Position numbers and translations under genes: made by a program
Notes under the pieces: model-generated
Told to the model about the DNA's origin: nothing
The model's database searches: none
Seen by the model: only the letters and a program-made list of their open reading frames with translations
Assembly: GCF_036507355.1 (NCBI RefSeq)
Contig: NZ_AP027877.1
Length of the DNA stretch: 64,000 bases
Source of the DNA: Escherichia coli
GTDB taxonomy: Bacteria; Pseudomonadota; Gammaproteobacteria; Enterobacterales; Enterobacteriaceae
Reading direction: 5' to 3' (one strand)
Shown: piece after piece, positions 11,248-25,969 of the stretch
Numbering within the stretch: the stretch's first letter is position 1
Layout of the letters: every line of letters begins with the position of its first letter

Positions 11248-12438
11248 GTGACCACCCGACAGCATTCATCGTTTGCTATTGTTTTTATCCTTGGCCTGCT
11301 GGCCATGTTGATGCCGCTGTCGATTGATATGTATCTGCCCGCGCTACCGGTAATTTCAGCGCAGTTTGGCGTACCGGCGGGCAGTACGCAGATGACCCTC
11401 AGTACTTATATTCTGGGCTTTGCGTTGGGGCAGTTAATCTACGGGCCGATGGCAGACAGCTTCGGGCGTAAGCCGGTGGTTCTTGGCGGTACGCTGGTGT
11501 TTGCCGCCGCCGCGGTGGCGTGTGCGTTGGCACAAACCATCGATCAGCTGATTGTGATGCGTTTCTTCCACGGGCTGGCGGCGGCTGCGGCCAGCGTGGT
11601 TATCAACGCTTTGATGCGTGATATCTACCCGAAAGAAGAGTTCTCGCGGATGATGTCGTTTGTCATGCTGGTGACAACCATTGCACCGCTGATGGCACCG
11701 ATAGTTGGCGGCTGGGTGCTGGTGTGGCTGAGCTGGCATTACATCTTCTGGATCCTCGCCGTGGCGGCGATTCTGGCTTCGGCAATGATCTTCTTTCTGA
11801 TCAAAGAAACCTTACCACCGGAGCGTCGCCAGCCTTTTCACATTCGTACCACTATTGGTAACTTTGCGGCGCTGTTCCGTCATAAGCGTGTCCTGAGTTA
11901 TATGCTGGCCAGTGGTTTCAGCTTTGCCGGGATGTTCTCGTTCTTAAGCGCCGGACCGTTTGTCTACATTGAAATTAACCACGTCGCGCCGGAAAACTTT
12001 GGTTATTACTTTGCACTAAACATTGTTTTCCTGTTCGTGATGACCATCTTTAATAGCCGCTTCGTCCGCCGTATTGGCGCGTTAAATATGTTCCGCTCGG
12101 GGTTGTGGATACAATTTATTATGGCAGCGTGGATGGTCATCAGTGCGCTGCTGGGGCTGGGATTTTGGTCGCTGGTGGTTGGCGTTGCGGCGTTTGTGGG
12201 CTGCGTGTCGATGGTGTCATCCAATGCGATGGCGGTCATTCTTGATGAGTTTCCCCATATGGCGGGAACGGCATCTTCGCTGGCAGGAACCTTCCGTTTT
12301 GGCATAGGGGCAATTGTTGGCGCATTGCTTTCTCTTGCGACCTTTAACTCTGCATGGCCGATGATTTGGTCAATTGCATTCTGCGCAACCAGCTCCATTC
12401 TCTTCTGTCTGTACGCCAGTCGGCCGAAAAAACGGTGA
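11248..12438 (+). CDS. bcr: Bicyclomycin/multidrug efflux MFS transporter Bcr (396 aa), GTG start
   Basis: 12-[29 protein letters not shown]...; 27 bp downstream of rsuA. Confidence 0.9.
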
Positions 12439-12772
12439 TCTATTGCACAACGAGGAAGCTAAAAGGCTTCCTTTGTTGATGCATGTCAACCACAAATCTA
12501 TCATTCCCCCCCGATATATGTTTATTTTATGTAAAATCAATTTATGTAAAAAGTCACATCATTGTAGTTAAAAAGGTTGAGTTAGATCGCAGAAACGGGT
12601 ACATATAGCCCCGCAAACGTGACCACGCCCGCAGATATTACTTAAATCAGAGCCATAGAGGCCACGCAGGCGAGGCATCAATCTTTACGATCTGTATAAA
12701 GACGGATTGTTGATGATGTGTTAAAATTGATGTAAATAAATTGTGAAGTAAATGTGCTTCCGGGGAAAATAA

Positions 12773-13117
12773 GTGACTTCATTACAACTCTCAATCGTCC
12801 ATCGACTGCCGCAGAACTATCGCTGGTCTGCTGGTTTCGCAGGTTCGAAGGTTGAACCGATTCCGCAAAATGGACCGTGCGGTGACAACAGCCTGGTGGC
12901 GCTTAAATTGCTTAGCCCGGATGGTGATAATGCATGGTCGGTGATGTATAAACTAAGCCAGGCGTTAAGCGACATCGAAGTTCCATGTTCGGTGCTGGAG
13001 TGTGAAGGTGAGCCGTGCCTGTTTGTAAATCGCCAGGACGAGTTTGCTGCAACATGCCGATTGAAAAATTTTGGTGTGGCAATTGCCGAACCCTTTTCAA
13101 ACTACAATCCTTTTTAA
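12773..13117 (+). CDS. yejG: Uncharacterized protein YejG (114 aa)
   Basis: ORF of the expected length at the expected position; function not inferable from sequence. Confidence 0.75.
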
Positions 13118-13120
13118 GCG

Positions 13121-14710
13121 TCAGCTCAACGCCAGTAGCTGACGCGTATACTCCTGCTGCGGTGTGGCAAACACGCGCGCGCACGGTCCTTGTTCCACTA
13201 CTTCCCCTTGTCGCAGTACGATAACCTGATGACATAACGCGCGGACAACGTGCAAATCGTGGCTGATAAACAAATAGGCCAGTTGATGCTTTTGTTGCAA
13301 TGATTTCAATAGCGTCAATATTTGCGCCTGTACCGTTTTGTCGAGTGATGATGTCGGTTCATCAAGTATGATCAGCGAGGGCTTAAGAATTAATGCCCTG
13401 GCAATCGCAATACGTTGTCGCTGACCACCAGAGAACTCCGCCGGATAACGCTGGCGTGTTTCAGGATCTAATCCCACTTCATGCATCACGGCTATCACTT
13501 GTTGTTCGCGTTGTGCGGCAGAAAGCGTCGGCTGGTGAACCCGTAAGCCTTCCTCAATAATCTGCAAAACGTTGAGTCGTGGGTTGAGCGAGGAGTTTGG
13601 ATCCTGAAATACCACCTGAATGCGATGACGAATAGGTAACAGCTGGCGGCGATTTAAATTTTGCAGTGGCTGACCGTCAAAGACGATGCTGCCCTGAGAG
13701 TTAATCAGTCGCAGCAGCGCCAGTCCCGTCGTGCTTTTCCCGGAACCAGACTCGCCCACTAAACCCAGTGTTTCACCCGCTCGTAGCGTAAAACTGATGT
13801 TTTTCACCACCACATTATGATCCACAATGCGCTTCAAAATCCCTTTGCGAATGGGGAAGGCAACCTGAAGCTGTTCAACATCCAGCAACGTTGAGGCAGG
13901 TTCTGGCAACGGCACTGGATCGCCTGACGGTTCACTGTTGAGTAGCTTTTGTGTGTAAGGATGAGTGGGTGAGGCAAATAGCGTAGCGGCGTTATTTTGC
14001 TCGACACAGCGACCGTTTTGCATTACCGCCACGCGGTGGGCCAGTTTTCTGACAATGCTGAGGTTATGAGTAATAAACAGCATGCCCATATTCAGCTCGC
14101 CTTGCAGTTCGCGCAACAGCTGTAAAATCTGCGCCTGGACAGAGACGTCCAGTGCGGTGGTCGGTTCATCGGCAATTAATAATTCCGGTCGCGTTAACAG
14201 CGCCATCGCAATCATCACCCGCTGGCGTTCGCCGCCGGAGAGCTGATGCGGATAATCTGTCAGCCGTTTTGCCGCCTGGCGGATACCAACGCGATCAAGG
14301 CAGTTAAGAATTTCGCCACGAGCCGCTTCCCGACGCATCCCGCGGTGGAGTGAAAGCACTTCATAAAGCTGTTTTTCCAGGGTATGCAATGGATTTAACG
14401 ACACCATCGGCTCCTGAAAAATCATGGCGATCTTATTACCGCGTACACCGCGCAACGTTTGATCGCTGGCATGAAGCAGCGATTCGCCATGAAAACGAAT
14501 ATCGCCGGAGAGATATTCAACCGGCGGGGAAGGGAGCAGGCGTAAAATTGACAGCGCGGTAACGCTTTTGCCTGAACCTGACTCACCCACCAGCGCCAGC
14601 GTTTCGCCAGCCTCAATCTGTAGTGAAACATCATTGACTACTGTACGTACGGTTTGCTGATGGCGAAAACCCACCGATAAATCTTCAATCGCTAACAGAG
14701 TTTGCGTCAT
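13121..14710 (-). CDS. yejF: Peptide/microcin C ABC transporter ATPase YejF, two fused ABC domains (529 aa)
   Basis: Two Walker A motifs (GESGSGKS twice) and two LSGGQ-type signatures; start trimmed to [13 protein letters not shown]. Confidence 0.9.
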
Positions 14711-25714: not shown

Positions 25715-25969
25715 ATGGAATGCCGTCCGGGTTGCGGGGCGTGTTGCACTGCCCCTTCAATTTCCAGCCCTATTCCCGGTATGCCAGATGGCAAGCCCGC
25801 CAATACGCCCTGCATTCAGCTTGATGAACAGCAACGCTGTAAAATTTTCACCTCGCCACTGCGGCCGAAAGTCTGTGCAGGCTTACAAGCCAGCGCTGAA
25901 ATGTGCGGTAACTCGCGTCAGCAGGCAATGACCTGGCTTATCGATCTGGAAATGCTGACCGCGCCTTAA
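25715..25969 (+). CDS. yeiW: Cysteine-rich UPF0153 protein YeiW (84 aa)
   Basis: [27 protein letters not shown]... with conserved Cys cluster; divergent from efpL. Confidence 0.8.

Follow-up and report, generated by a model that had tools for sequence, protein, structure and literature searches.

The genes yejG and yejF run toward each other and end almost on top of one another, which raises the question of where transcription of either gene stops and whether yejG affects the importer to which yejF belongs. In the 64,000-nucleotide stretch of Escherichia coli DNA analysed here (the window), yejG lies on the plus strand at 12773-13117 and encodes a YejG family protein of 114 amino acids, ending with a TAA stop at 13115-13117. 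The yejF gene lies on the minus strand at 13121-14710 and encodes 529 amino acids, ending with a TGA stop at 13121-13123 (tca on the plus strand). This tail-to-tail arrangement was seen in both the open reading frame list and the K-12 annotation (yejG as b2181, yejF as b2180). YejG matches Pfam PF13989 (E 5.8e-51), and YejF, the ATP-binding subunit of the YejABEF peptide/microcin C importer, has two ABC_tran domains (Pfam). Only the spacer GCG (13118-13120) separates the two stop codons, and the coordinates and spacing given in a preliminary description of this DNA were exact. K-12 has the same 3-bp spacer, with the end of yejF at 2277889 and the start of yejG at 2277893, and the junction was present as a single copy in 5425 of 5426 complete E. 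coli genomes. A gap this small is not unusual. The 13 convergent junctions in 103 kb of K-12 sequence around the locus had gaps of -4, 3, 31, 70, 73, 102, 106, 138, 199, 210, 242, 372, and 714 bp, so that two of the 13 were at or below 3 bp. A second such junction, setB/yeiW, lies within the same window.

The preliminary description had also stated that no hairpin lies between the stops. This is trivially true for 3 bp, but wrong in substance since a conserved stem-loop straddles the junction. Its arms, GCGTCAGCT (13118-13126) and AGCTGACGC (13137-13145), form a perfect 9-bp stem around a 10-nt loop (13127-13136), and the structure can form on both strands. The stem-loop (13118-13145) spans the spacer, which supplies the three outermost pairs, the yejF stop codon, and the last eight yejF codons, T-R-Q-L-L-A-L-S. 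The predicted fold was -16.6 kcal/mol on the plus strand (z -5.0, with none of 200 shuffles equally stable) and -16.2 kcal/mol on the minus strand (z -2.7). With six G-C pairs in nine, the stem is G+C-rich, like that of an intrinsic terminator. No U-run follows it on either strand, where the flanks are GUAUACUC (plus) and UUAAAAAG (minus), and U-runs after the stem were also missing in the other 67 loci with a 3-bp gap. Because the stem has no U-tract, it is not a canonical terminator, and a consensus scan of 12300-13700 returned no terminator-like sites, which together rule out a canonical intrinsic terminator at the junction. Searched against Rfam with E values up to 1 allowed, 12300-14000 matched only a human lncRNA model, by chance.

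Next, the conservation of the junction was examined. The tail-to-tail arrangement is conserved across Enterobacteriaceae, and the 3-bp gap was retained in 68 of 81 loci. Across 62 distinct sequences, 93% of the cells in the stem were paired. Cells in which both partners had changed numbered 22, compared to 6.4 +/- 2.2 in shuffles, and none of 500 shuffles reached this value, with the covariation amounting to about three independent events among related sequences. At pair 10-37 (GC/CG/AU), changes in the first base of the spacer go together with changes at the third position of the yejF Thr codon, and at pair 13-34 (UA/CG), a TGA-to-TAG stop change is coupled with a CGT-to-CGC change in the Arg codon. 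Synonymous diversity was 0.06-0.42 in the codons of the arms versus 0.69-0.77 in those of the loop. The mean energy of the junction was -15.7 kcal/mol versus -9.2 kcal/mol in control windows inside yejF (genus-level Wilcoxon p 2e-5). The stem of the present sequence was also more stable than its synonymous recodings (p 0.017 on the plus strand and 0.011 on the minus strand). All 20 representatives fell below the recoded mean energy on the plus strand; in many of them, p was only 0.1-0.3. Lineages with other gap sizes keep a hairpin after the yejG stop, and some of these, in Mangrovibacter, Erwinia, and a distant locus, L087, are unrelated in sequence. Together, these comparisons show that the stem-loop is maintained by selection across Enterobacteriaceae.

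The G·U pairs of the stem lean to the yejG-sense RNA. Wobble pairs that only the yejG-sense RNA could form were more frequent than those of the opposite type, at 32 versus 17 over the whole stem and 27 versus 5 in central pairs 2-7. This asymmetry was significant against controls (p 0.003), with 17 genera favoring the plus strand and 4 the minus strand. The tolerance of G·U pairs on one strand and the unrelated hairpins in other lineages make a protein-binding palindrome acting at the DNA level unlikely. It is very improbable, in our judgment, that there is no functional element at all, with codon bias and the conserved YejF C-terminus (..YTRQLLALS) producing the palindrome incidentally, and the unvarying gap reflecting no more than a small indel target. 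Some pairing potential does exist because the YejF protein sequence itself supplies it: the Gln-Leu codons CAG CTG read as a palindrome, and energies of -9 to -15 kcal/mol remain in the recoded controls. A 3-bp spacer would also rarely be hit by indels, and no 3' end has been mapped at the hairpin. Against this reading stand a noncoding spacer base that compensates a synonymous-site change and a stop codon change that is compensated in an Arg codon. The low diversity of the arm codons beside that of the loop codons, the uniform result for the 20 representatives, and the unrelated hairpins at the same place also argue against it.

The preliminary description had expected transcription of each gene to read into the other, and published K-12 data bear this out in both directions. 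In the Term-seq data of Adams et al. (2021, PMC7815308), a single yejG-sense 3' end is curated in the vicinity of the junction. It maps to K-12 2277685(-), equal to window position 13325, and lies 208 nt inside yejF (Supplementary file 1). The published 61-mer maps to 13275-13335, with its 3' end at 13325. This end was found in all three growth conditions, with average reads of 212,916 and 168,450. The read-through RNA (13118-13325, plus strand) is untranslated and lies antisense to the final ~68 codons of yejF. Further on, a Rho-dependent, bicyclomycin-sensitive termination region peaks at K-12 2277275(-), or 13735 on the plus strand, ~618 nt inside yejF (Supplementary file 2; Rho score 3.76, p 2.2e-10). 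Reads upstream and downstream of it were 128 and 27 without bicyclomycin (BCM) and 343 and 272 with BCM. On the opposite strand, the only curated yejF-sense 3' end is K-12 2278567(+), window position 12441 on the minus strand, which lies beyond yejG and ~676 nt past the junction, with average reads of 1,086 and 3,147 (PMC7815308). It is carried by the reverse face of the bcr terminator hairpin GGAAGC/GCTTCC (12454-12471). Any yejF-sense RNA extending to this hairpin would thus have traversed the whole of yejG as antisense. The pair yejF-yejG is also one of 165 convergent excludons found in at least 50% of 58 MG1655 transcriptomes (ExcludonFinder, NAR 2025, PMC12288877, Table 1). Read-through was thus already on record in the published Term-seq and ExcludonFinder data, and the overlap was already catalogued; the supplements of SMRT-Cappable-seq have no entry for yejG or yejF.

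These data show that in K-12 the yejG-sense RNA passes the stem-loop and runs on untranslated as antisense through the 3' part of yejF. The main 3' end at steady state falls 208 nt into yejF, immediately after a second U-less hairpin, and Rho-dependent termination occurs at ~620 nt. The RNA with its 3' end at 13325 may derive from yejG read-through or from a promoter inside yejF. The curated Term-seq lists have no 3' end at the junction hairpin itself on either strand in the three conditions (K-12 22778xx). Because these lists are thresholded (in one part of Supplementary file 1 of Adams et al., the lowest minus-strand entries have ~23,000 reads), minor 3' ends could escape them, and yejABEF 3' ends may fall below the listing threshold. 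The second stem-loop, GUUGAUGCU/AGCGUCAAU (13282-13319, plus strand), has no U-tract, and the Term-seq 3' end follows it after 6 nt (predicted fold -17.9 kcal/mol, z -2.7). All 18 of its pairs are kept in Escherichia, and 11-17 of the 18 are kept elsewhere, where different folds are predicted. Conservation only in Escherichia rules it out as a family-wide yejG terminator.

Distant relatives offer a view of what the junction may have been. The distant loci came from a search of representatives, as the best 120 matches of the homologue search were only close relatives. The distant yejG homologues keep rsuA/bcr upstream, and their convergent partner is an NlpC/P60 gene or a methyltransferase rather than yejF; yejG is present in distant lineages without yejABEF. 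Two of the loci, L085 and L089, have spacers of 82-132 nt with canonical A-tract/hairpin/U-tract bidirectional terminators between yejG and the convergent gene. In L087, the genes overlap by 4 bp and a hairpin covers the stops. The distant yejG loci without yejF weaken any synteny-based argument that yejG and yejABEF have a dedicated functional link.

The account that we consider probable is a compressed tail-to-tail junction of two independent transcription units, which share one conserved stem-loop without U-tracts, where a reduced terminator is combined with clearance by Rho. The junction hairpin would be the reduced equivalent of the bidirectional terminator of the longer-spacer relatives, its A- and U-tracts having been removed by coding sequence on both sides. 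With these tracts lost, the hairpin would no longer stop RNA polymerase efficiently. It could still act as a pause site or as a barrier to 3' exonucleases, protecting the yejG reading frame after the antisense tail decays, and perhaps also protect the end of the yejABEF mRNA. Such a barrier or 3'-end role is not seen directly in Term-seq, whose thresholded lists have no curated 3' end there. Rho would then dispose of the untranslated read-through, as usually happens to antisense transcripts in E. coli. Both elements of this account have precedents: Rho-dependent transcripts ending just past stable U-less stem-loops with rut sites downstream are described by Dar and Sorek (2018, NAR, PMC6061677), and U-less hairpins at convergent pairs were reported by Wang et al. 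(bioRxiv 2022.10.23.513370). If the Yej importer is affected at all, this is probably a minor side effect of the overlap and not dedicated control.

The preliminary description had proposed that yejG could modulate the importer by antisense transcription. In such a regulatory excludon, transcription of yejG would lower yejABEF, or the reverse, through interference by RNA polymerase and cutting of the sense/antisense duplex by RNase III, and uptake of peptides and microcin C would depend on the yejG promoter. The overlapping transcripts documented by Term-seq and ExcludonFinder, the antisense coverage of at least 208 nt and up to ~620 nt of yejF, and the gene order conserved across Enterobacteriaceae are all in its favor. 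There is also one RNase III product captured by p19, a 22-bp sense/antisense duplex inside yejF at 13848-13869 (Huang et al. 2020 mBio, Table S3), which is the sole duplex evidence for the yejG-yejF overlap. However, this duplex lies beyond the Rho region and is one of thousands listed, at a low abundance of 2.2 and 4.2 RPM, and p19 reads were on average ~38-fold less dense at convergent than at divergent overlaps in the same study. The literature searched contained no paper that mentions yejG together with yejABEF and no experiment connecting yejG with the importer. Tables derived from Hfq RIL-seq show only yejG.5UTR, with no node for a yejG 3' UTR or yejF antisense, which speaks against regulation of this kind and also against a stable Hfq-bound sRNA from the yejG 3' UTR. 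The persistence of yejG without yejABEF in distant lineages, the lack of conservation of the E. coli-specific hairpin at +208, and the existence of 165 such convergent pairs in E. coli weigh against it as well. We therefore regard this kind of regulation as possible but unlikely.

Another possible explanation is a collision-type bidirectional terminator (Ju et al. 2019; Wang et al. 2022), in which the hairpin would pause polymerase from either side and head-on collision would end both transcripts, and weak transcription of yejABEF would be the sole cause of the read-through in K-12. This class is matched by a U-less hairpin that can fold on either strand between convergent genes; the preprint (bioRxiv 2022.10.23.513370) describes the class as unlike intrinsic terminators, Rho-independent, and more efficient as the expression of both genes rises; relatives also carry true bidirectional terminators at the same position. 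Collision would leave 3' ends that flank the element with a short overlap, but the curated ends at 13325 (plus) and 12441 (minus) are far outside it, 208 nt and ~676 nt past the junction, and the read-through is Rho-sensitive further downstream. This makes collision a doubtful explanation for the K-12 data, one to which we give a low probability. Even less credence is given to a switch gated by translation. Here, the 5' arm of the hairpin directly follows the yejG stop, and a terminating ribosome would melt the stem and let antisense RNA extend into yejF, while yejG RNA that is not translated would fold into the stem, pause, and end early. Selection on the stem, its lean to the yejG-sense strand, and its position against both stops are compatible with such a switch but do not support it directly. 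If true, the translation status of yejG would set the level of antisense RNA across an importer gene, and the element would be kept in coding sequence for that purpose.

The junction is thus real, ordinary, and largely known. The reduced-terminator account, if correct, implies that a junction without a visible terminator is not free of signals, since a terminator common to two genes pressed tail-to-tail can be retained as nothing more than a hairpin within codons, with Rho clearing the read-through. For annotation, 3' elements should be looked for inside the neighboring coding sequence. In the case of the Yej importer, the 3' end of yejF is indeed covered by antisense RNA. Current understanding is unchanged. 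Similar junctions are common, with 165 convergent excludons in MG1655.

The concept of the convergent excludon is reportedly that of Sesto and colleagues, from 2013. Like other members, yejG/yejF is a tail-to-tail pair with overlapping transcripts and an antisense tail of at least 208 nt, and it is listed as such (PMC12288877). The functional consequence that defines the class is mutually exclusive expression, and what is documented for yejG/yejF is the overlap of transcripts. The pair differs in that Rho terminates the overlap and in having a conserved stem-loop at the junction. The Rho-dependent 3' stem-loops described by Dar and Sorek (2018, PMC6061677) are similar in that the 13325 end lies 6 nt past the U-less stem at 13282-13319, with the Rho region downstream. 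Both a bicyclomycin-sensitive drop and a precise end were found here, the latter after the second hairpin and not the junction hairpin. Unlike in that class, the curated end is not at the conserved stem (13118-13145), and the stem before the end is conserved only in Escherichia. The overlapping bidirectional terminators of Ju et al. (2019), as recounted in bioRxiv 2022.10.23.513370, resemble the palindromic yejG/yejF hairpin in that it folds on both strands, looks unlike an intrinsic terminator, and could pause polymerase either way. The yejG/yejF hairpin differs from them in that the 3' ends are far past it, Rho acts on the read-through, it lies inside coding sequence, and its wobble pairs favor one strand. 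The canonical bidirectional intrinsic terminator, of which the neighboring bcr terminator in the window is an example, has the A- or U-tracts that the yejG/yejF junction lacks, but the junction hairpin occupies the same position as the canonical terminators of L085 and L089 and probably shares their ancestry.

The yejG and yejF genes end 3 bp apart, as the preliminary description had stated. yejG (12773-13117, plus strand), an ORF of 114 amino acids, ends in TAA at 13115-13117, and yejF (13121-14710, minus strand), which encodes the ATP-binding subunit of the YejABEF peptide/microcin C importer, ends in TGA, seen as tca on the plus strand at 13121-13123, leaving a GCG spacer at 13118-13120. 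Both genes were confirmed by Pfam. The window is E. coli chromosome with up to 99.7% identity to many strains, and the K-12 orientation is its reverse. In the K-12 annotation, yejF ends at 2277889 and yejG lies at 2277893-2278237 on the opposite strand and, therefore, the 3-bp gap is present in the reference annotation. Of 5426 complete E. coli genomes, 5425 carry this junction as a single copy.

The same description had reported no hairpin here; a conserved stem-loop without a U-run, embedded in yejF codons, was found. An inverted-repeat search gave the arms GCGTCAGCT (13118-13126) and AGCTGACGC (13137-13145) around a 10-nt loop, with the stem starting at the spacer. Since the yejF strand reads ACG CGT CAG CTA CTG GCG TTG AGC TGA CGC, one arm spans the Thr-Arg-Gln-Leu codons, and the other runs from the final Ser codon through the stop and spacer. 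Folding energies of the 40-nt junction segment are -16.6 kcal/mol for the plus strand (z -5.0, with 0 of 200 shuffles as stable) and -16.2 kcal/mol for the minus strand (z -2.7). No U-run follows the stem on either strand (plus, GUAUACUC; minus, UUAAAAAG), a consensus scan of 12300-13700 detected no terminator-like sites, and no Rfam family matched at the junction.

Conservation was examined in 81 loci, 80 from a YejG scan with one genome per species plus the window. Of these, 68 (window counted) have a gap of exactly 3 bp; they span Escherichia, Salmonella and Citrobacter to Klebsiella, Kluyvera, Kosakonia, Enterobacter and Leclercia. The remaining gaps are -21, -12, -12, 0, 1, 1, 1, 2, 5, 9, 22 and 23 bp, and one locus lacks yejF. 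Where the gap is not 3 bp, a hairpin is still present 3' of the yejG stop; those of Mangrovibacter and Erwinia are unrelated in sequence. In an ungapped alignment of the 68 gap-3 junctions, 93% of stem cells are paired, compared to just 20-57% at slid control positions, and 22 cells are changed on both sides, a count that none of 500 shuffles reached (6.4 +/- 2.2). Pair 10-37, between the first spacer base and the Thr codon's third position, occurs as GC, CG and AU; pair 13-34 occurs as UA and CG, a TGA-to-TAG stop change being coupled with a CGT-to-CGC Arg change. Synonymous diversity, which averages 0.50 over the last 150 yejF codons, is low in the stem codons (Thr 0.42, Arg 0.40, Gln 0.06, Ser 0.07, stop 0.24), with CGT and CGC the only Arg codons used, and high in the three loop Leu codons (0.69-0.77).

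Some of this pairing derives from the palindrome CAG CTG, and hence from the YejF protein sequence. When the last 12 yejF codons and the stop were synonymously recoded, the recodings folded at -9.7 +/- 2.9 kcal/mol, compared to -16.6 kcal/mol for the window stem (p 0.017 on the plus strand, 0.011 on the minus strand). All 20 of 20 representatives were more stable than their own recoded mean on the plus strand, with individual p values from 0.000 to 0.31. Mean folds of the 44 nt from the yejG stop were -15.7 (plus) and -14.5 (minus) kcal/mol, and those of control windows inside yejF were -9.2 and -9.7 kcal/mol (genus-level Wilcoxon, p 2e-5 and 5e-5). In Escherichia, Salmonella, Citrobacter, Klebsiella and Kluyvera, either strand forms a good stem. 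Among distinct sequences, 32 wobble pairs are yejG-sense-only and 17 yejF-sense-only (27 and 5 in central pairs 2-7), an asymmetry that leans toward the yejG-sense strand but is not proof. Relative to control windows, the plus strand is favored in 17 genera and the minus strand in 4 (p 0.003).

Transcription across the junction, also proposed in the preliminary description, is borne out by Term-seq ends, a Rho region and an excludon listing that were already published. Among the curated MG1655 3' ends from three conditions in the Adams et al. (2021; PMC7815308) data used here, just two lie near the junction: 2277685(-) (average reads 212,916 and 168,450), listed as yejF antisense, and 2278567(+) (1,086 and 3,147), listed as bcr antisense. 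The published 61-mers, with the 3' end at position 51, match window 13275-13335 and 12431-12491, placing these ends at 13325 (plus) and 12441 (minus). Therefore, by these data, yejG-sense RNA reaches at least 208 nt into yejF. Its end lies 6 nt past a second U-less stem (13282-13319, plus strand; -17.9 kcal/mol, z -2.7), whose conservation is limited to Escherichia. Supplementary file 2 of the same study reports a Rho-termination region peaking at 2277275(-), window 13735 (Rho score 3.76, p 2.2e-10), with coverage of 128 reads upstream and 27 downstream without bicyclomycin and 343 and 272 with it. yejF-yejG is also one of 165 convergent excludons in at least 50% of 58 MG1655 transcriptomes (ExcludonFinder, PMC12288877), and a 22-bp p19-captured duplex in yejF (13848-13869; 2-4 RPM) is one among thousands (Huang et al. 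2020).

The bcr terminator hairpin, GGAAGC/GCTTCC at 12454-12471 and then TTTGTTGATG (region 12441-12481), acts on both faces, and the Term-seq end at 12441, as matched from the published 61-mer, is on the yejF-sense strand at its reverse face. yejABEF RNA, if the source of this end, would be antisense to the whole of yejG. The bcr-yejG spacer (12439-12772) is long, at 334 nt (2 nt shorter in K-12), and holds a promoter-like site at 12476-12504. A "5' UTR-yejG" RNA was enriched with Hfq in a published co-IP study, and yejG.5UTR is the only node at this locus in the RIL-seq-derived tables.

Could yejG control the importer? Such putative control is possible, but is disfavored by how commonplace overlaps of this kind are. 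Gaps at the 13 convergent junctions in K-12 2,227-2,330 kb are -4, 3, 31, 70, 73, 102, 106, 138, 199, 210, 242, 372 and 714 bp; the two of 3 bp or less are both in the window and both excludon-listed (PMC12288877). The other is yeiW (plus)/setB (minus), whose stops overlap by 4 bp within TTAA at 25966-25969; K-12 is annotated with the same overlap. An imperfect hairpin adjoins this junction (z -2.4, minus strand). Independence of yejG from yejABEF in other lineages also disfavors control. YejG belongs to a very small family: among 1.84 billion proteins, 63 representatives reach E <= 1e-3. Its overexpression is described as raising aminoglycoside MICs in a screen from 2026 and in an older study that the screen cites (PMC12924614). 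Distant loci usually keep rsuA upstream, often with bcr (L084, L085, L087); L086 has a tyrosyl-tRNA synthetase gene there. The downstream gene differs: yejF in L087 (4-bp overlap) and L086 (50-nt gap), an NlpC/P60 (mepS-like) gene in L085 (132 nt, 2843-2974) and L089 (82 nt, 431-512), and a co-directional methyltransferase in L084. Thus, yejG can do without yejABEF. L085 and L089, which lack yejABEF and whose spacers leave room, carry a textbook A-tract/hairpin/U-tract bidirectional terminator between the two genes, and L087 has a hairpin over its overlapping stops. Because of these structures after yejG, the Enterobacteriaceae stem looks, from sequence comparison, like a reduced form of a shared terminator.

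The preliminary description was right in its observation and half right in its interpretation: transcription crosses the junction, but the junction is not bare. The arrangement is ordinary and was catalogued before, and one small detail of it is undescribed. The best-supported account is that a compressed shared terminator would have turned leaky, with the junction stem retained as a pause site or exonuclease barrier, chiefly for yejG RNA, and that read-through RNA would be ended by Rho and trimmed back to the downstream hairpin. Dar and Sorek (2018), in the findings drawn on here, describe precise 3' ends that lie directly past stable, U-less stem-loops and are followed by rut sites, and the yejG-sense end after a U-less stem, with a Rho region downstream, fits that pattern.
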